This document shows positions 1 through 6,335 of a stretch of DNA of 32,000 bases, piece after piece. This DNA comes from Candidatus Saccharimonadota bacterium. GTDB lineage: Bacteria > Patescibacteriota > Saccharimonadia > Saccharimonadales > UBA4665. The translations under genes were made by a program, and so were the position numbers. The notes beneath the pieces were generated by a model. That model was given only the letters and a program-made list of their open reading frames with translations. It searched no databases and was not told where the DNA came from. The stretch is from the NCBI GenBank assembly GCA_963716945.1, contig OY970322.1, forward strand, positions 750,001 through 782,000, in the 5' to 3' direction. Positions within the stretch are counted from its first letter, which is position 1. Every line of letters begins with the position of its first letter.

Positions 1-297
1 CTCGTCCAAGCCGAAGTGCCGGACTTTCTGCAGGTAGCTCATGATGTAGATATCCGTGTCGACACCCTGTTGGCGGGCCGTTTTAATCAGCTTGAAGCTG
101 CCGGCCGTGGTCATACCGGCCGCTAGGGCGGTGTCATTAGCCCGCATGATGGTTTCGCCGTCGGCGATCGGGTCCGAGAAGGGTATCTGGACTTCGATGG
201 CCGCGACGCCGGCCCGGTTCAGGCCGGCGAGCAGCTCCAGGCAGGACTTCTCATTAGGAAAACCGGCTACGACATGGCACATCAACGCTTTACTCAT
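1..297 (-). CDS. trpA: tryptophan synthase alpha subunit, N-terminal 99 codons (gene runs off the left edge)
   Basis: ATG at 297 overlaps the trpB stop by 8 nt. My translation MSKALMCHVVAGFPNEKSCLELLAGLNRAGVAAIEVQIPFSDPIADGETIMRAN... carries the TrpA PFSDP-x-ADG motif. Frame is open to position 1. Not in the ORF track because it is truncated. Confidence 0.85.
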   Translation of the reverse strand, partial: MSKALMCHVVAGFPNEKSCLELLAGLNRAGVAAIEVQIPFSDPIADGETIMRANDTALAAGMTTAGSFKLIKTARQQGVDTDIYIMSYLQKVRHFGLDE

Positions 298-1492
298 AGC
301 CTTTAACCTCCCGCTTCAGGAATTCGCCGAACTCCTCCCGGCTAAAATGCTTGGCCAGCGTGAAAAGGTCCTTGTCGCCCCGGCCGGAAACGTTGATTAC
401 GACCGTTTGGCCGGCATTGAGCCGCTTGGCCAGCTTCATGCCGTGAGCTACGGCATGGGCCGATTCCAAGGCCGGAATTATGCCTTCGCTGCGGGCTAAT
501 GCCTCGACGGCCGCCAGGGCTTCCTTATCGCTGGCCCGGTCGAACTTTACCCGCCCCGTATCCTTAAGCTGGGCCAGTTCGGGACCGATCCCGACGTAGT
601 CGAGGCCGGCCGCGACGCTGCTGGTCGGTGCCGTGTTACCGTCGGCATCCTGCAGAAAGTAGGACTTGTAGCCCTCCATGATGCCGGTTTCGGCGTCCGG
701 AAAGCGGGCCGCATGCTGGCCTAGCTTCTTGCCCTTGCCGCCGGCCTCGACGCCGACCAGTTCGACTGCCGGCTCATCTACAAAAGCATAAAACGCGCCC
801 AGCGCATTGCTGCCGCCGCCAACGCACGCCACAACGTAGTCGGGGTTGCGGCCCAGCTGCGAACGGATCTCCCGGCCGACGATTGACTGGAAGTCCCGGT
901 TCATTCTCGGATAGGGATCAGGGCCCAGACAAGAACCAATAATATAGTGCGTGTCCTGGGAATTCTGCAGCCAGTCCCGGATAGTAGCGCTAACGGCGTC
1001 CTTAAGGGTCTTGGAGCCATGTGTCACCGGCACGACTTTGGCGCCCAGCAATTCCATCAGAACGACGTTGGGCCGCTGGCGCTTCATATCGACCTCGCCC
1101 ATGTAAATAGTGCAATCGAAGCCGAATTTGGCGGCCACGGTAGCTGTCGCCACCCCATGTTGCCCGGCACCGGTTTCGGCAATTAGCCGGGTCTTGCCAA
1201 GGTTCTTGGCTACCAGGGCTTGCCCGAGACAATGGTTAATCTTGTGAGCGCCGGTGTGGTTTAGCCCTTCGTTCTTGAGGTAAATCTGAGCGCCGCCGAC
1301 GGCCGCCGTTAAGTTTTTAGCAAATGTCAGAGGTGTCGGACGGCTGTTGTAGGCGGTTTGGAGTTCATGCAGCTCGGCTTTGAAGGCCGGGTCGTTCTTG
1401 AGACGGTCGTAGGCTTCGGCTACCGCTTCCAGCTCGCCTTGGAGCATTTCCGGCACGTAACGGCCGCCGTAATCGCCGAAGTAGCCTTTCAT
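290..1492 (-). CDS. trpB: tryptophan synthase beta subunit
   Basis: 400-aa ORF, MKGYFGDYGGRYVPEMLQ... with HTGAHKINH PLP-lysine region and GGGSNA motif. 4-nt overlap with trpC. Confidence 0.97.
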   Translation of the reverse strand: MKGYFGDYGGRYVPEMLQGELEAVAEAYDRLKNDPAFKAELHELQTAYNSRPTPLTFAKNLTAAVGGAQIYLKNEGLNHTGAHKINHCLGQALVAKNLGKTRLIAETGAGQHGVATATVAAKFGFDCTIYMGEVDMKRQRPNVVLMELLGAKVVPVTHGSKTLKDAVSATIRDWLQNSQDTHYIIGSCLGPDPYPRMNRDFQSIVGREIRSQLGRNPDYVVACVGGGSNALGAFYAFVDEPAVELVGVEAGGKGKKLGQHAARFPDAETGIMEGYKSYFLQDADGNTAPTSSVAAGLDYVGIGPELAQLKDTGRVKFDRASDKEALAAVEALARSEGIIPALESAHAVAHGMKLAKRLNAGQTVVINVSGRGDKDLFTLAKHFSREEFGEFLKREVKGYE

Positions 1493-2310
1493 GACTTTGC
1501 CGCCTCTTTGGGCGTTACCAGTTTCGTGATTGAGGCCTCAATACTGCCGGCCTCCATAAAATGGCTGCCGACCAAGGCCGCATCGGCAAAGTCCGATAAC
1601 GCGGCCAGGTATTCGGGACTGTCTATACCCGACTCCGCCACGCGGGCGTAATGGGTGTCAACTTCGCGCAATAATTCGTGGCGCTTGACGTCGACCTGGA
1701 ATGTCTTCAAGTCGCGGCTGTTAACGCCGATGCAGCGGGCCTTGGTCTTAAGCGCCAGCGCCAGCTCTTGGCGGTTATGGACTTCGACCAGCGGTTCGAT
1801 GCCAAGCTCCAGCCCCAGGTTTACCAGCTCGTTGAGCTCGTTTAGCTCAAACAAGGAGACGATTAACAGGTAAGCCTGGGCGCCCAGCAGCTTAGACTCA
1901 ACGATCTGGTACGGGTCAAAGATGAAATCTTTTCTAAGCAGGGGCTTGTTGTTAGGGTTATGCCGAGCAAAAAATTCCAGGGTATCGTCGCTGCCGAGAA
2001 AATGGTCGCTTTCCGTCAGGATCGAGATGGCTGCCACCTGAGGAGCGGCCTGATAAGCCTGGTTGATAGCGGCCGGGGAAAAGTCTTGCCGCAGCACGCC
2101 GCGGCTGGGCGAGGCCTGCTTGACCTCGGCGATAAGCTTCACACTGGGCGGCCCGGCTTTGAGCGCCTCGAAAAAGCCCGGACCGGCAAACGGTTTTTGG
2201 CGCCGCAGCTCGGCTTCCAAGGCCGTCAAGGGCCTTAGCGGCTGCTGACGCTTCAGGTGCCGCTTCTTGCTGGCTACGATTTTATCCAGGATGGTGTCAG
2301 TGCGCTTCAT
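1489..2310 (-). CDS. trpC: indole-3-glycerol-phosphate synthase
   Basis: 273-aa ORF of typical IGPS length and sequence (ILDKIV...KASPSRGVLR...RKDFI), directly upstream of trpB. Confidence 0.9.
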   Translation of the reverse strand: MKRTDTILDKIVASKKRHLKRQQPLRPLTALEAELRRQKPFAGPGFFEALKAGPPSVKLIAEVKQASPSRGVLRQDFSPAAINQAYQAAPQVAAISILTESDHFLGSDDTLEFFARHNPNNKPLLRKDFIFDPYQIVESKLLGAQAYLLIVSLFELNELNELVNLGLELGIEPLVEVHNRQELALALKTKARCIGVNSRDLKTFQVDVKRHELLREVDTHYARVAESGIDSPEYLAALSDFADAALVGSHFMEAGSIEASITKLVTPKEAAKS

Positions 2311-2563
2311 GGTCCCGCCTCAAGACTTTAAACCTACCGGCATTCAGCTCTTTGGAGCCGCGCGTAACGGTTGCGATTCCGACACCCAGGTCATGGGCTA
2401 TCTTGTGCTGCGGCTCGCCTGCCAGCAAGCGCTTGATTATCTCTAGGCGCTGCCCGATTTCCGCCCGTTCTTTGGCCGTCGTGATACCGGCCAGAAAGTC
2501 TTCCAGCAGCCGCTTGTCGCCAATCGAATTGACCAGCTCTATAAAGTCATTAAAATCAGCCAT
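2297..2563 (-). CDS. trpR: TrpR-family (Trp repressor-like) helix-turn-helix protein
   Basis: 88-aa ORF. HTH segment HDLGVGIATVTRGSKELN closely matches E. coli TrpR LGAGIATITRGSNSLK. First gene of the trpC-trpB-trpA unit, overlapping trpC by 14 nt. Confidence 0.8.
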   Translation of the reverse strand: MADFNDFIELVNSIGDKRLLEDFLAGITTAKERAEIGQRLEIIKRLLAGEPQHKIAHDLGVGIATVTRGSKELNAGRFKVLRRDHEAH

Positions 2564-2600: not shown

Positions 2601-3833
2601 TTATTTTTGGCGGCTGGCAGCGGCTTCGGCTAACAGGGCCAGCATGGCTTCGGTCTCGGCCAGGCCGGCGCATTCGTCGGTGATGCTTTGGCCGTAAACC
2701 AGGTCGGCCGGGTCGCCGAGTTCCTGCCGTCCGGCAACCAGATTGCTCTCTATCATGACGCCGCAAACGGCCGCTTCGCCACCGGCGACCTGCCGGGCGA
2801 CATCCTCGGCTACCAGTTTCTGACGCGCGGCCTGCCGCAGGCTATTGCCATGCGAGGCGTCGATAATAATCGATGGCAGCAATGATTTGCGGGCCAGAAT
2901 CTGTTTGGTCTTGGCTATATGTTCGGCCGAGTAATTGGGCCCGCTGGCATCGCCGCGCAAAATGACGTGGGCCGTGTCGTTGCCCGTACTGTTAACCTGG
3001 GTCGGAGCGCCGTTCATGCCCATGCCGAGGAAGGCATGGCCGCCCCTGGCCGACACTACTGCCTGGGCGGCGGCTTCGATACTGCCTTCGGGCGTATTCT
3101 TGAAACCGACCGGTGAAGAAGTGCCGGAAGCGTATTCCCGCGCCTTTTGGTCGGTCGTGTTGCGGGCGCCGATGGTGTCGTAAGCCACAAGGGCATTAAC
3201 GTACTGGGGGGTTAAGGCATTAAGGCGTTCCATGGCAACCGGCACGCCGAGTTCGGTAATCCGGCAGGCCAGCAGCCTGGTAGCCGTCACTCCAAGGTTG
3301 ATGTCGTCGGACCCGTCAAGCAAGGGGTCGTAAATGAAACCTTTCCAGCCCAGTTCGGTGCGGGGCTTCTCCATGTAGGCCCGCATGATAATCTCCAGAT
3401 TGCCGCCGTAGCGTTCGCGCCACTTGGCGACCTGGCCAGCATACTCCAGGGCCGACTTCGGGTCATGGACGGAACAAGGGCCGACTATGGCCAGGAGTTT
3501 TGACGATTTATGGTTTAGGATATCGGTAATGGCCTGGCGGCCCCGGCTAGTGGTGGCGGCCGAGGCGGCCGAAACCGGTACGACAGCCGTCAACATTTTA
3601 GGCGTGATAACCGGCGTGACGGTAGCTATCCGGGTGTCGACCAGGTTTTTTATACCGGCGGCCTCCTTGACAGTACCGTTGCCGTCCAGCCGTTTCCGGC
3701 AGGCCTCCAATAACTCGGATTCGGCAGCCGAGGCCGCGGCCTCAACACCGGCCTGCACCTTCAGCAAGGCATCTTTAATCTTTCCTGCTTCGGCCAGGAT
3801 GTCAGAGTCAGATAGGTTTGTCGGTTGGGGCAT
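2601..3833 (-). CDS. aroG: 3-deoxy-7-phosphoheptulonate (DAHP) synthase, class I-alpha (AroF/G/H family), with about 60-aa N-terminal extension
   Basis: 410-aa ORF. LLAIVGPCSVHD, KPRTELGWKGFIYDP, SPVGFKN and IDASHGNS align along the length of E. coli AroG. Confidence 0.92.
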   Translation of the reverse strand: MPQPTNLSDSDILAEAGKIKDALLKVQAGVEAAASAAESELLEACRKRLDGNGTVKEAAGIKNLVDTRIATVTPVITPKMLTAVVPVSAASAATTSRGRQAITDILNHKSSKLLAIVGPCSVHDPKSALEYAGQVAKWRERYGGNLEIIMRAYMEKPRTELGWKGFIYDPLLDGSDDINLGVTATRLLACRITELGVPVAMERLNALTPQYVNALVAYDTIGARNTTDQKAREYASGTSSPVGFKNTPEGSIEAAAQAVVSARGGHAFLGMGMNGAPTQVNSTGNDTAHVILRGDASGPNYSAEHIAKTKQILARKSLLPSIIIDASHGNSLRQAARQKLVAEDVARQVAGGEAAVCGVMIESNLVAGRQELGDPADLVYGQSITDECAGLAETEAMLALLAEAAASRQK

Positions 3834-3862
3834 ACGTTCAAGTCTCGCTCTTTATGGTATTT

Positions 3863-3886
3863 AAAAACCGCCTCAGGCGGCGGTTT
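3863..3886 (-). terminator. intrinsic terminator / attenuator hairpin
   Basis: Minus strand AAACCGCC-GCCUGA-GGCGGUUU followed by UU AAAU. 8-bp stem, 6-nt loop, run of 5 U. Lies 30 nt upstream of the DAHP synthase ATG and 145 nt downstream of the rpsI stop. Confidence 0.65.
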
Positions 3887-3909
3887 GGTTAATGCTTGGT
3901 TCAAGTGAT

Positions 3910-3987
3910 TCAGGCATTAAGGCGCAACCGTCCGCCGCGGGCCGAGCCGCTAAACCAATACGGGCTGCCGTCCTGGAATCTTGACAT
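3910..3987 (-). CDS. candidate 25-aa leader peptide MSRFQDGSPYWFSGSARGGRLRLNA with consecutive Tyr-Trp-Phe codons
   Basis: ATG at 3987 sits 7 nt downstream of a TATATT -10 box. Codons 10-12 are UAU UGG UUU (3960-3952) and the UGA stop is at 3912-3910. Sits between a promoter and a terminator upstream of the first common aromatic-pathway gene. Equals the last 25 codons of track ORF 3910..4107. Confidence 0.6.
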   Translation of the reverse strand: MSRFQDGSPYWFSGSARGGRLRLNA

Positions 3988-3994
3988 GAGGGGT

Positions 3995-4023
3995 AATATA
4001 GCATGCCGAATTAGGCGAGTCAA
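3995..4023 (-). promoter_or_regulatory. sigma70-type promoter TTGACT-17 nt-(TGc)TATATT driving the leader peptide and DAHP synthase
   Basis: Minus strand TTGACTcgcctaattcggcaTGcTATATTacccctcATG. Near-consensus -35, 17-nt spacer, extended -10. Begins 8 nt after the rpsI stop. Confidence 0.6.
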
Positions 4024-4030
4024 ATAAGGC

Positions 4031-4432
4031 TTAGCGCTTGGTGAATTGGCGCTGCTTACGGGCGCCCTTGAGGCCGAACTTCTTTCGTTCCTTTTCGCGG
4101 GAGTCACGGCTTAGGAGGTTGGCCCGCTTAAGGGTGCTCTTGAGCTCGTCGTTCATCACCGTCAGGGCTTTGGCGATACCCAAGCGGATAGCTTCGGTCT
4201 GGCCTTCGTGGCCGCCGCCGGAAACCACGGCGCTGACATCGAACTTGTTAACCTGGTCGAGCACTACGAAGGGCTGCTGAAGCTTGGTCAACAGGTATTT
4301 ACTGTCCGAGAAATACTCAGCGGCCGGCTGGCCGTTGATGGTTATAGCACCCTTGCCGGTTTGCAGGCGGACGCGGGCGGTGGCGCTTTTGCGGCGGCCG
4401 AGGGCATAGAAGTAGTTATTCTTAGTGGCCAT
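4031..4432 (-). CDS. rpsI: 30S ribosomal protein S9
   Basis: 133-aa ORF ending ...ARKQRQFTKR. TAATG junction with rplM. Confidence 0.97.
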   Translation of the reverse strand: MATKNNYFYALGRRKSATARVRLQTGKGAITINGQPAAEYFSDSKYLLTKLQQPFVVLDQVNKFDVSAVVSGGGHEGQTEAIRLGIAKALTVMNDELKSTLKRANLLSRDSREKERKKFGLKGARKQRQFTKR

Positions 4433-5377: not shown

Positions 5378-6335
5378 TTAAAGCTCCAGCTCCGCCAGTT
5401 TATCTTTGACTTCGTCCAGGGCTTTGCTGCCAAAACCTTTGAGGTCGCGCAGTTCGGCGTCATTGAGGGCGAACAGGTCGCGGATAGTGTGGATATCGTT
5501 GTTAATCAAGGCGTTGGTGGTGCGGGCCGACAGGTTCAGGTCTTCGATTGAAGTACTGAGGGCAGTCGCCTCTTCGCCCATCATGTCATTGCTGAAACCG
5601 CTGTCCTGGGCGGCGGAGCTGTCGGCAACCGGTTCGTTGCTGGCCACGCGGGTTTTGCCGGCCAGGGCCGTGTACTGGTTAACCAGGATGGCGGCGGCTT
5701 CTTCGAAAGCGTCTTGCGGCGTGATTGAGCCGTCGGTGTCAACGGTCAGCAGCAAGCGGTCAAGGTCGGTAGCCTGGCCGACACGGGTGTTCTCGACCTT
5801 GTAGCGGACACGGAGAACCGGGCTGAAAATGGCGTCGAGAGCGATCATATCGCTGGCCTTGCTTGGCCGTACCTTCTTCGATGGTGCGGTAGCCGCGGCC
5901 GACTTCGACGGTCAGGTCGATGACCAGTTTGGCCTTGGCGTCGTCGATGGTGGCGATAACGTGCTCCGGGTTGACGATTTCGACGTCGGCGTTGGTCTGG
6001 ATGTCTTTGGCCGTGACGGCGCCCTTGCCCTGTTTGACGATGCGCAGCGTCTGAGGTTCGTTGCCGTAAACGCGGAACCGGACGCTCTTGAGGTTCAGCA
6101 TGATGTCAACGACGTCTTCTTTGACACCGGGAACGCTGGTGAACTCGTGGGTGACGCCTTCGATCTTGAATGCCGTGACGGCGGCACCGGCGATGCTGGA
6201 GAGCAGCACCCGGCGCAGGCTGTTGCCCAGAGTCATGCCGTAGCCGTTATGCAGCGGCTCAATCACGAAGGAAGCGCTGGTGGCACTGTGGTCGTCGACT
6301 TTGACGAGACCTGGGGTGTGAATAATATTTGACAT
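5378..6335 (-). CDS. rpoA: DNA-directed RNA polymerase alpha subunit, interrupted by one frameshift near 5850-5868
   Basis: Track ORFs 5760..6335 (N-terminal domain, ...[17 protein letters not shown]) and 5378..5848 (..[24 protein letters not shown]... plus C-terminal domain) are contiguous RpoA in two frames. Confidence 0.92.

Follow-up and report, generated by a model that had tools for sequence, protein, structure and literature searches.

A probable leader-peptide transcription attenuator with Tyr-Trp-Phe codons upstream of the aroG-trp operon in Saccharibacteria

The region 5' of aroG in a Candidatus Saccharibacteria genome (Candidate Phyla Radiation, CPR) probably encodes a ribosome-mediated (leader-peptide) transcription attenuator, which would control aroG, a trpR-like gene, trpC and trpB (and trpA). 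Based on the sequence and on modelling, we assign this reading a probability of about 0.8. The window, i.e. the whole stretch of DNA analyzed, comprises 32,000 nucleotides, and all elements described here lie on its minus strand. Comparison with relatives suggests that the leader belongs to a real family of classical-type leader-peptide attenuators, one apparently not described before. This family appears to be centred on Trp, since the regulated genes are aroG, trpR-like, trpC, trpB and trpA or trpS and the Trp codon of the leader is almost invariant. A focus on Tyr, Trp and Phe alike had been proposed in a preliminary description; the triplet is indeed conserved, but the operon is centred on Trp and the flanking codons are Tyr or Phe.

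Organization of the leader and its operon

The first regulated gene is aroG, whose ATG is located at 3833. It is followed in the window by the trpR-like gene, trpC and trpB (Table 1). The trpR-like product scored 55.7 bits against the TrpR model TIGR01321, which is below the cut-off of 67. In relatives trpA comes after trpB, or trpS in some of them, and at one locus (L007) pheA follows aroG. Every coordinate proposed earlier for the promoter, leader ORF, aromatic codons, terminator and antiterminator was found to hold on the minus strand.

Table 1. Positions of the leader elements and neighboring genes in the window
Feature	Coordinates	Strand	Basis or remark
rpsI	4031..4432	-	PF00380; last gene of upstream ribosomal-protein unit; stop TAA 4033-4031
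-35 box TTGACT	4018..4023	-	Sequence and promoter scan; TTGACA-like, same position in 24-sequence alignment A2
Extended -10 box TGcTATATT	3995..4003	-	Sequence and promoter scan; 17-nt spacer to -35
Leader ORF MSRFQDGSPYWFSGSARGGRLRLNA, 25 codons + UGA	3910..3987	-	ATG 3987, UGA 3912-3910
Regulatory codons UAU-UGG-UUU (Tyr-Trp-Phe)	3952..3960	-	UGGUUUA almost invariant
Region 1, 5' strand of anti-antiterminator	3940..3951	-	AGCGGC in the window, degenerate compared with ACCGRC of relatives
Region 2, GCGGCGG-AC-GGUU, 5' strand of antiterminator	3926..3938	-	Minimum-free-energy fold
Inner helix UUAAUGC/GCAUUAA, within antiterminator, across UGA stop	3889..3920	-	Minimum-free-energy fold
Region 3, AACC-AAA-CCGCCGC, 3' strand of antiterminator	3877..3890	-	Holds terminator 5' arm 3886-3879
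Region 4, GGCGGUUU, terminator 3' arm and U tract	3863..3872	-	Terminator scan, folding, RNAalifold
aroG, class I (AroFGH-type) DAHP synthase, 410 aa	2601..3833	-	PF00793 7e-64; TIGR00034 368 bits
trpR-like gene, 88 aa	2297..2563	-	PF01371 2.7e-17
trpC	1489-2310	-	PF00218 / PF00291 profile matches for trpC and trpB
trpB	290-1492	-	PF00218 / PF00291 profile matches for trpC and trpB

The proposed promoter TTGACT-17 nt-TGcTATATT is borne out by the sequence and by a promoter scan of the window, which lists it with 10 of 12 matches and the TG upstream. All 24 leaders compared below have a sigma-70-type promoter, and TATATT is almost invariant in their alignment (A2, 24 sequences). In the window, the ATG at 3987 lies exactly 7 nt past the -10 box and is not accompanied by a Shine-Dalgarno sequence. 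Exactly the same distance separates the end of the -10 box from the start codon (ATG or GTG) in 19 of the 24 leaders. This spacing suggests that the leader mRNA is probably leaderless, with a predicted transcription start at the A of the ATG (3987) or 1 nt before it.

The terminator AAACCGCC-GCCUGA-GGCGGUUUUU (3886-3863) has a folding energy of -12.8 kcal/mol and was found by the terminator scan as well. The alternative pairing that had been put forward as antiterminator, 3938-3926 with 3890-3877 enclosing AAUGC/GCAUU, turned out to be the minimum-free-energy fold of 3858-3945 (-32 kcal/mol, z = -2.76, 0 of 200 shuffles as good). Folding of the whole leader (3834-3987) gave no significant result (z = -1.29); significance was confined to the 88-nt switch region.

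Conservation and covariation in related genomes

We compared the window with 24 full leaders from relatives whose AroG proteins are 48-84% identical; these 24 come from a single phylum and are not independent, about 19 being non-redundant. Among the matches listed there were 27 Saccharibacteria aroG loci that bear a leader, 24 complete and three cut by contig ends, and all 27 of these leader-keeping loci show the same architecture 5' of aroG. Genome and metagenome scans contributed at least 7 and at least 10 Saccharibacteria loci among the matches listed. The other 143 listed matches, nearly all of them proteobacterial, are aroG loci from outside this phylum and served as negative controls.

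ORF, aromatic codons, antiterminator box and terminator are conserved together in the relatives, which supports the attenuator reading of the preliminary description. Relatives that had lost the ORF while keeping the hairpin would have spoken against it. None was seen among the collected loci; the two loci without the ORF (L084 and L085) also lack the hairpin, and with it the whole module. The module is present where aroG does not directly follow rpsI (e.g. L005, L164, L170 and L173-L175). One genome (L007) carries a second, paralogous copy with Tyr-Trp-Tyr, located 5' of a trpS operon.

All 24 leaders contain an ORF of 15-26 codons, which is always in frame with the aromatic triplet. The triplet reads [Tyr/Phe]-Trp-Phe in 22/24; the exceptions are Tyr-Thr-Trp-Phe (L164) and Tyr-Leu-Phe (L163). 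In the latter, Leu (UUG) replaces Trp, and this is the sole leader with a changed second base of UGG. The first position of the triplet is Tyr or Phe in 23 of the 24 leaders; L164 has Thr there, and its Tyr is found one codon further upstream. The Trp codon is thereby almost invariant, and its flanking positions are Tyr or Phe. Aromatic residues make up 20% of the leader peptides vs. 5.7% of six neighboring proteins. Each aromatic amino acid is represented by a single codon, while most proven attenuators have more, a point against the attenuator reading. Start codon and UGG are 21, 27, 30 or 33 nt apart, always a multiple of three, and the Tyr and Thr codons of the leader vary synonymously. 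Both observations argue that the ORF is read as codons and would be translated.

Region 2 follows a different logic. Its GGCGGU core is almost invariant and lies 21-23 nt past the UGG of the Trp codon in 22/24 leaders, yet it falls into all three reading frames (15, 6 and 3 leaders). Because the box occurs in every frame at a near-fixed distance from UGG, it must be conserved as RNA. All 24 leaders are closed by a terminator of the form ACCGCC-loop-GGCGGUUUUU, with GGCGGU as 3' arm followed by a U tract and energies of -6.8 to -14 kcal/mol. The core of the terminator does not vary among 23 sequences. RNAalifold recovered the terminator independently; on the leader alignment it predicted this structure only, and neither the 2:3 nor the 1:2 pairing.

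In the 2:3 core (GGCGGU with ACCGCC), 97.8% of the cells are paired. Covariation of the antiterminator, which the preliminary description had named as a test, was borne out in part: one compensatory change, from U-A to C-G, was found (L006), but covariation of the flanks is marginal (p ~0.024 with the core, ~0.055 without it). Since both cores are almost invariant, 2:3 and 3:4 can carry little covariation. The spacer of the inner helix is not conserved in sequence among the relatives.

The GGCGGU box has two alternative partners, the 5' arm of the terminator and a segment just past the Phe codon. In relatives, this segment reads ACCGRC and pairs with region 2 to form a 1:2 hairpin. Here covariation is clear. 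We counted 18 doubly changed cells vs. 8.1 +/- 2.2 in shuffled alignments (0 of 500 shuffles), and the compensatory changes are located in three apical pairs. In addition, non-overlapping hairpin halves were exchanged between leaders. Cognate halves gave -7.75 kcal/mol and chimeric ones -5.98 kcal/mol (0 of 20000 permutations). In the window and a few relatives the 1:2 hairpin is weak or absent; other leaders, e.g. L001, have a strong one. This anti-antiterminator, covarying in relatives and degenerate in the window, had been missing from the preliminary description.

Proposed ribosome-dependent switching and competing explanations

The proposed ribosome geometry was evaluated with a masking model on RNA ending before region 4, which is the kinetically relevant species, for the 24 leaders. 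With the A site on the Tyr, Trp or Phe codon, the probability of the 2:3 pairing was 0.83-1.0 in 24/24 leaders. With the ribosome at the stop codon it was 0 in 24/24 leaders, as the ribosome-position model had predicted. In the window, 2:3 forms on this RNA even without a ribosome. Equilibrium folding with region 4 present gave a mixed picture, and in many relatives the terminator dominates despite a stalled ribosome. Thus the switch must be kinetic, like that of classical attenuators. Aromatic-rich short ORF, terminator, mutually exclusive antiterminator, 1:2 hairpin and modelled stall/stop geometry, all expected of a leader-peptide attenuator, are present, the 1:2 hairpin being weak in the window.

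These data are consistent with the following course of events. Transcription would start at the AUG or 1 nt before it and yield a leaderless mRNA, onto which a ribosome could load as soon as the 5' end is available. With ample charged aromatic tRNAs, this ribosome would reach the stop codon and cover region 2 (GGCGGU), region 3 (ACCGCC) would pair with region 4 (GGCGGU and U tract), and transcription would terminate 5' of aroG. Slow decoding at the adjacent Tyr-Trp-Phe codons would stall the ribosome there, so that it covers region 1 just past them and leaves region 2 free. Region 2 could then pair with region 3 while region 4 is still to be transcribed; no terminator would form and the operon would be transcribed. 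In most relatives, untranslated RNA is expected to fold into 1:2 and 3:4 and to terminate. In the window, termination would depend on a translating ribosome, because region 1 is degenerate. The operon is most likely switched on when charged aromatic tRNAs are scarce; both this starvation response and the efficiency of termination are predictions of the model. Trp would be the almost invariant sensor codon; with Tyr and Phe codons on either side of it, sensitivity probably extends to the whole set of aromatic amino acids.

The same mechanism could sense Trp alone through the single UGG, with Tyr and Phe kept by pairing of UGGUUUA or by ancestry. The regulated genes are mostly trpR-like, trpC, trpB, trpA or trpS, UGG is invariant except in L163, and the Tyr-Trp-Tyr copy before the trpS operon indicates that the third position is not fixed. 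A predicted trpS leader of Streptomyces likewise has one Trp (PMC8079986). We nevertheless consider sensing of Trp alone unlikely. Apart from L164, every copy has Tyr or Phe at positions 1 and 3, Tyr and Phe occur near Trp in 25/25 leader peptides, the first regulated gene encodes an enzyme of the common aromatic pathway, and at L007 it is followed by pheA. Going further, the Saccharibacteria attenuators might be modular devices that simultaneously gauge the charging of all three aromatic tRNAs with one codon each and are reused with a changed triplet, Tyr-Trp-Phe in front of aroG-trp operons and Tyr-Trp-Tyr in front of the trpS operon. They might possibly act together with a TrpR-like repressor, for which the inverted repeat TTGACA-N20/21-TGTCAA that spans the promoter in some relatives would be a candidate site. 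We put this modular reading forward tentatively, at somewhat below even odds.

Explanations in which tRNA charging plays no role agree less well with the comparative data. The TnaC motif is Trp12-Phe-Asn-Ile-Asp16, with the arrest consensus Trp-x3-Asp-x7-Pro-stop at fixed spacing. Many leader copies contain Trp-Phe-Thr-Asp, which recalls this motif by analogy, and [Tyr/Phe]-Trp-Phe is kept in this order more strictly than plain codon sensing needs. A nascent peptide could therefore be imagined to stall the ribosome together with free Trp or another ligand. However, the peptide past the triplet is variable and the GGCGGU box changes frame there, many copies have Gly, Ser, Glu, Asn or Pro in place of the Asp, and length and stop vary (15-26 codons) with no conserved Pro before the stop. 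Such a switch would also be turned on by excess Trp, the wrong polarity for biosynthetic genes. TnaC-like arrest was rejected on these departures from the consensus (no conserved Pro, no fixed stop, variable peptide), and we regard it as very improbable. About equally improbable is control of termination by a protein or small ligand (a TrpR-like or TRAP-like factor or a riboswitch aptamer) with an incidental ORF. The trpR-like gene within the operon speaks for it, as does the inverted repeat at the promoter of some relatives, which would act on DNA and be added to the attenuator, not replace it. Rfam scans of the whole window at gathering thresholds gave no match, including Trp_leader, Phe_leader, His_leader, Leu_leader, Thr_leader and T-box, as the preliminary description had expected. 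Within 3700-4150, searching with E up to 10 yielded only two spurious matches to Pseudomonas sRNAs (E 1.6-2.5). Outside the short boxes the RNA varies in sequence and length, unlike an aptamer. Where it is conserved, it has the properties of a coding sequence: insertions and deletions are multiples of three nucleotides, and the start codon, which is in frame, falls on the predicted +1. On the blank Rfam scans and the variable RNA between the boxes, we rejected a T-box and any other riboswitch. The hairpin might finally be the ordinary terminator of the ribosomal-protein unit followed by an aroG promoter, with the ORF and the alternative pairing arising by chance. The window has no terminator between rpsI and the leader promoter, nor any other after rpsI, and terminator-like sites in the region are not enriched (22 found vs. 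18.4 expected). But the promoter precedes the terminator instead of following it, the module also occurs away from rpsI-aroG and before the trpS operon of L007, and at three loci (L003, L007 and L089) it is kept although rpsI is followed by a terminator of its own. ORF, triplet and GGCGGU box are conserved in 24/24 leaders. A chance ORF beside an ordinary terminator is contradicted by these comparative data and was rejected; we give it almost no weight. Within the attenuator reading, this terminator may plausibly stop the ribosomal-protein transcript as well, as the window holds no other one after rpsI.

Relation to described leader peptides

In the literature on attenuators and leaderless mRNAs in Saccharibacteria, Patescibacteria and the CPR we found nothing relevant and no description of the module. 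The novelty supposed earlier for a leaderless Tyr-Trp-Phe leader stands insofar as no published description was found; leaderlessness itself is already usual in attenuator leader peptides of Corynebacterium and Streptomyces (PMC4046766, PMC8079986). Corynebacterium glutamicum AroR is described as a leader peptide with Phe-Tyr-Phe located 5' of aroF, a DAHP synthase gene, and is reported to respond to Phe, not Tyr (Neshat et al. 2014, as cited in PMC11802643 and PMC4046766). In C. glutamicum, leader peptides lacking a ribosome-binding site can still be translated (PMC4046766, citing Morbach 2000). As far as these accounts go, both systems combine a short leader peptide, adjacent aromatic codons, a DAHP synthase gene on the 3' side and stalling with transcription attenuation. 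They differ in that aroR as described there is without Trp, in the phylum of the host, and in the Trp genes and trpR-like gene, which only the Saccharibacteria operon has. The comparison with aroR made in the preliminary description is thus right as to an aromatic leader 5' of a DAHP synthase gene, but the peptide there has Phe-Tyr-Phe and the one here Tyr-Trp-Phe, and the likeness, drawn from published descriptions, is functional only.

Leaderless leader peptides of 12-29 aa with a hairpin and U tract downstream are known from Streptomyces lividans (trpL1, trpL2, ilvL, leuL etc.); in some, an amino acid is represented by a single regulatory codon, as is Trp in TrpL2 and as are Val and Ile in IlvL (PMC8079986). 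The Saccharibacteria leader shares with them the start codon at the (here predicted) transcription start and the very short peptide, and with some of them the single regulatory codons. In contrast, none of the S. lividans leaders is reported before a DAHP synthase gene, none has an aromatic triplet, and phylum and sequence differ. A uORF attenuator 5' of aroF, the uORFC-13-1 motif, has been predicted in Acholeplasma (Mollicutes) and environmental sequences (PMC8632094). There, too, the uORF lies directly 5' of an intrinsic terminator before a DAHP synthase gene, but it is described with a ribosome-binding site, a start codon and a Phe-coding U run, and no Trp/Tyr triplet is described. In Rfam 15 nothing relevant matched the window. 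Simkania negevensis and Coxiella burnetii have trpR and trp genes in one operon with a DAHP synthase gene, and for chlamydial trpR-trpBA joint control by a repressor and an attenuator has been suggested (PMC3937554). The DAHP synthase gene is last and of type I-beta in these operons, whereas it is first and AroFGH-type here, and their leader peptides are unrelated to the Saccharibacteria leader.

With trpL, pheL, hisL and ilvL of Proteobacteria the leader shares the logic of 1:2, 2:3 and 3:4 pairing, regulatory codons before or inside region 1, and an intrinsic terminator. The proteobacterial leaders have Shine-Dalgarno sequences, their regulatory codons lie within region 1 and form runs of one codon; the Saccharibacteria leader is leaderless by prediction, has one regulatory codon for each of three amino acids, all located 5' of region 1, and has no Rfam match. 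Precedents for multivalent sensing are the ilv (Leu, Val, Ile) and thr (Thr, Ile) leaders. The mechanism is classical, and DAHP synthase genes preceded by a leader peptide have been found or predicted before, in Corynebacterium and Acholeplasma; a known principle would be extended, not a new one introduced. One codon per amino acid would be a compact sensor design.

The usual picture of CPR bacteria is one of minimal biosynthesis and of gene regulation that is hardly known. A conserved attenuator 5' of aroG-trp suggests that some environmental Saccharibacteria keep and regulate the aromatic pathway, and it would imply coupled transcription and translation on a leaderless mRNA. Should the modular three-tRNA reading be true, this would be, to our knowledge, the first evidence of coupling-dependent regulation in the Candidate Phyla Radiation, and some reduced episymbionts would regulate their own supply of aromatic amino acids. 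A covariance model (R1) was built from the module. On about 150 non-Saccharibacteria aroG loci, almost all proteobacterial (~1.1 Mb listed), no hit exceeded 25 bits. The complete Saccharibacteria copies score 45-93 bits, and R1 can serve as a searchable RNA family for the annotation of Saccharibacteria genomes.

Organization of the aroG leader in the window and its relatives

The element lies on the minus strand between ribosomal protein genes and aroG. Pfam and NCBIfam identified rplQ, rplM and rpsI upstream, and an AroFGH-type DAHP synthase (410 aa), a TrpR-like protein (88 aa), trpC and trpB downstream. The preliminary description had proposed a leaderless Tyr-Trp-Phe attenuator here, and the coordinates of its promoter, leader ORF, regulatory codons and terminator were confirmed on this strand. 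A promoter scan gave 10/12 matches plus an upstream TG. Inspection of the sequence upstream of the window leader ATG revealed no Shine-Dalgarno sequence. A 65-aa GTG ORF (3910-4107, minus strand) is the leader frame, open upstream into rpsI, and not a separate gene.

Features of the aroG leader in the window
Feature	Position	Strand	Basis or remark
rpsI stop TAA	4033-4031	-	sequence
-35 box TTGACT	4023-4018	-	begins seven bases past the rpsI stop
-10 box TGcTATATT	4003-3995	-	17-nt spacer from the -35 box
Leader ORF MSRFQDGSPYWFSGSARGGRLRLNA	ATG 3987, stop 3912-3910	-	ATG exactly 7 nt past the -10 box
Regulatory codons UAU-UGG-UUU	3960-3952	-	sequence
Terminator AAACCGCC-GCCUGA-GGCGGUUUUU	3886-3863	-	-12.8 kcal/mol
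aroG start	3833	-	sequence

Homologues of the window AroG came from Candidatus Saccharibacteria or Saccharimonadales. Loci of relatives (L numbers) were collected by an AroG-alignment scan of a genome collection (at least 7 Saccharibacteria loci), a metagenome scan (at least 10 further Saccharibacteria loci) and exact-protein look-ups (15 additional loci, 11 distinct). Complete leaders numbered 24 including the window, with AroG proteins 48-84% identical to that of the window; the leaders of L086, L087 and L090 are cut by contig ends and stand outside this set. At L084 (1-160) and L085 (1080-1125) aroG lies directly 3' of rpsI, without leader ORF and without hairpin or terminator. A hairpin kept without the ORF, which would have spoken against the proposal, was found at none of the relatives' loci. 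With ORF and hairpin absent together in L084 and L085, the element behaves as a single module. L084 retains a promoter and carries a trpR-like gene and trpC after its aroG; at L085 no promoter is visible before aroG.

Specificity was assessed with R1, a covariance model of the leader element. In the window it found a single site (3863-3963, minus strand, 67 bits). Every complete Saccharibacteria aroG leader scored (45-93 bits), and nothing exceeded 25 bits on about 150 proteobacterial aroG loci. As predicted, no Rfam family matches the leader.

TTGACA and TATATT boxes are conserved among the leaders. The start codon, ATG or once GTG, is preceded by a pyrimidine and stands exactly 7 nt past the -10 box in 19 of the 24. 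Unlike the leader ORF, the aroG start downstream has ordinary AGGAG-type sites. Spacing, pyrimidine and the AGGAG-type sites at aroG instead support an mRNA that would be leaderless or carry a 1-nt leader.

In the promoters of L001, L002, L003, L004, L081, L162 and L166, TTGAC(A) occurs a second time, inside the interval from the -35 to the -10 box. Together with TGTCAA at leader codons 1-3 it forms an inverted repeat that spans roughly -26 to +8, counted from the leader ATG (CTTGACAT...ATGTCAAG in L003, TCTTGACA...TGTCAAGA in L166). Both arms are changed to match in L172 (TAACA...TGTTA); in the window (4023-3980 compared) ATGTCAAG is kept and the upstream arm is missing. The repeat may be an operator across the -10 box and start site, perhaps for a TrpR-like protein. 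Between rpsI and the leader promoter, L003 (3725-3800), L007 (3745-3800) and L089 (about 800-900) have a further, separate hairpin that carries a T run. No such hairpin is present in the window or at most other loci, so that ribosomal-protein read-through there would meet the attenuator's terminator.

Alternative RNA structures and ribosome position

The proposed mechanism is that of a classical four-region leader-peptide attenuator, with pairings 1:2 (anti-antiterminator), 2:3 (antiterminator) and 3:4 (terminator). A terminator is present in 24/24 leaders (-6.8 to -14 kcal/mol). The antiterminator pairing proposed beforehand proved to be the minimum-free-energy fold of 3858-3945, GCGGCGG-AC-GGUU pairing with AACC-AAA-CCGCCGC around an AAUGC/GCAUU helix (-32 kcal/mol, z = -2.76, 0/200 shuffles as good). 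Structure over the entire window leader was not significant against shuffles (z = -1.29).

In the alignment of 23 leader sequences (A3), the OFF structure (1:2 plus 3:4) had 79% of cells paired, and only 32-54% when the partners were slid by one to three columns. It contained 18 doubly changed cells versus 8.1 +/- 2.2 in shuffles (0/500), all within three apical 1:2 pairs using AU, CG, GC and UA. The 1:2 hairpin was also tested alignment-free, with chimeras that combined non-overlapping 5' and 3' halves of different leaders. Cognate halves gave -7.75 versus -5.98 kcal/mol for chimeras (0/20000 permutations as good). The 2:3 core was paired in 97.8% of cells. Since it is invariant apart from L006, it says little about pairing either way. 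In the covariation check suggested at the outset, RNAalifold alone recovered the terminator and returned neither 1:2 nor 2:3, and 2:3 showed one compensatory change (U-A to C-G in L006, G-U at the same position in the terminator), with flanks at only p of about 0.055.

The ribosome was modelled by hiding 13 nt from the first A-site codon base, and the RNA was ended before region 4, mimicking the moment of decision. With the A site on Tyr, Trp or Phe, the modelled 2:3 pairing probability was 0.83-1.0 in 24/24 leaders; with the ribosome at the stop codon it was 0 in 24/24, in agreement with the geometry first proposed. Without a ribosome the modelled values were heterogeneous. Region 1 locks region 2 in L001, L004, L161, L162 and L163. 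By default 2:3 forms in the window and several other leaders, and termination there would depend on translation by a ribosome. When region 4 was included, folding at equilibrium was ambiguous, as would be expected of a kinetic switch, yet this remains a caveat.

Leader codons and a second copy

The leader ORFs have 15-26 codons and vary in sequence outside the triplet. Both the short ORF and its aromatic cluster, whose conservation was to be checked, persist across the 24 leaders: [Tyr/Phe]-Trp-Phe occurs in 22/24, and L164 has Tyr-Thr-Trp-Phe. L163 (2884-2981, MLIADTYLFTETPYGGLLDV) has Tyr-Leu-Phe, UUG replacing UGG. Tyr and Phe are found in every leader peptide, and Trp in all except that of L163. 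The UUG could mean that Trp has truly been lost as an input, or it could stem from an error in sequencing. The closely related L083 has UGG; L163 has no trp genes after aroG. Leader peptides are 20% aromatic versus 5.7% in six neighbouring proteins.

The leader start and UGG are 21, 27, 30 or 33 nt apart; any indel in this interval is thus a multiple of three. UGG lies 21-23 nt from the region 2 GCGG in 22/24 leaders, and the interval between regions 2 and 3 ranges freely (31-53 nt). The nearly invariant GGCGGU of region 2 falls in each of the three reading frames (15, 6 and 3 leaders) and encodes, by frame, Gly-Gly, Ala-Val, Trp-Arg and others. Because it sits in three different frames, its conservation is that of an RNA element and not of a peptide.

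Just upstream of region 3, AACCAA(A) motifs occur in the window (3896-3901 and 3884-3890, minus strand) and in the spacers of L081, L083, L170, L172 and L175. By complementarity they could pair with the invariant UUGGUUU at the Trp-Phe codons. In many leaders a small AACCA/UGGUU hairpin arises from an AACCA placed immediately 5' of the Tyr codon. Such pairing may add a further layer and might account for the invariable UUU at the Phe codon.

R1 detected a second copy at L007 (about 6133-6280, plus strand, 51.8 bits). It has its own promoter, a leader with Tyr-Trp-Tyr (MSTHNIQTQYWYTDTSRGGLFRVFEYRDAS), and the 22-nt spacing, GGCGGU box and terminator of aroG leaders. It is followed by an unknown 290-aa protein, an amino-acid racemase homologue and trpS (TIGR00233, 267 bits). 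Since Tyr replaces Phe before a tRNA-synthetase operon, this paralogous module argues for a codon-reading device.

The conserved ORF, triplet, GGCGGU box and terminator in relatives, together with the masking model, support the original interpretation, and we put the probability that the element is a functional attenuator of the leader-peptide class at roughly 0.8. The transcription start, ORF translation, termination and starvation response are what we infer for it.

Among known systems, Streptomyces lividans has predicted leaderless attenuators, some with a single regulatory codon (PMC8079986), and Acholeplasma a predicted Phe uORF, uORFC-13-1, upstream of aroF (PMC8632094). As described in PMC11802643 and PMC4046766, aroR of Corynebacterium glutamicum lies upstream of aroF, contains Phe-Tyr-Phe and responds to Phe, whereas the window leader has Tyr-Trp-Phe. 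The full-text literature, with incomplete coverage, describes no such attenuator or leader peptide for Saccharibacteria, Patescibacteria or CPR. We regard the elements as an apparently new family of leader-peptide attenuators in Saccharibacteria that are leaderless, aromatic and centred on Trp.

Genes probably regulated by the leader

At most loci aroG is followed by trpR-like, trpC, trpB and trpA. trpS directly follows aroG at L006 and L090, comes after an M20 peptidase gene at L168, and lies further downstream, past the trpR-like gene, at L089. L007 has pheA after aroG, L163 and L174 have unrelated genes, and none of the tested genes matched downstream of aroG at L005. Judged by this gene content, the regulon therefore comprises the common entry step and mostly Trp functions, in keeping with Trp being the invariant codon. 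On either side of it the Tyr and Phe codons are always aromatic, which suggests that they may also serve as inputs; sensing of all three aromatic amino acids is possible, at slightly less than an even chance.

The trp operons of Simkania and Coxiella include both trpR and a gene for DAHP synthase (PMC3937554). The window TrpR-like gene (2297-2563, minus strand) lies inside the operon and overlaps the trpC start; its product matches PF01371 and, with TIGR01321, reaches 55.7 bits, under the cut-off of that model. TrpR-IGPS was called as one 370-aa fusion protein at L162 (4303-5415) and L166/L167 (L166: 4256-5368). At L164 and L165 (4562-5388) trpC was called as two fragments (96 and 129 aa), which could reflect a frameshift or a pseudogene of that lineage. 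Saccharibacteria AroG has an N-terminal extension of 65-100 residues (window 3535-3833, minus strand), uncovered by any Pfam or NCBIfam model, as the models begin at residue 63-104. It is conserved in the group, with Leu23 invariant, and may be a regulatory domain.
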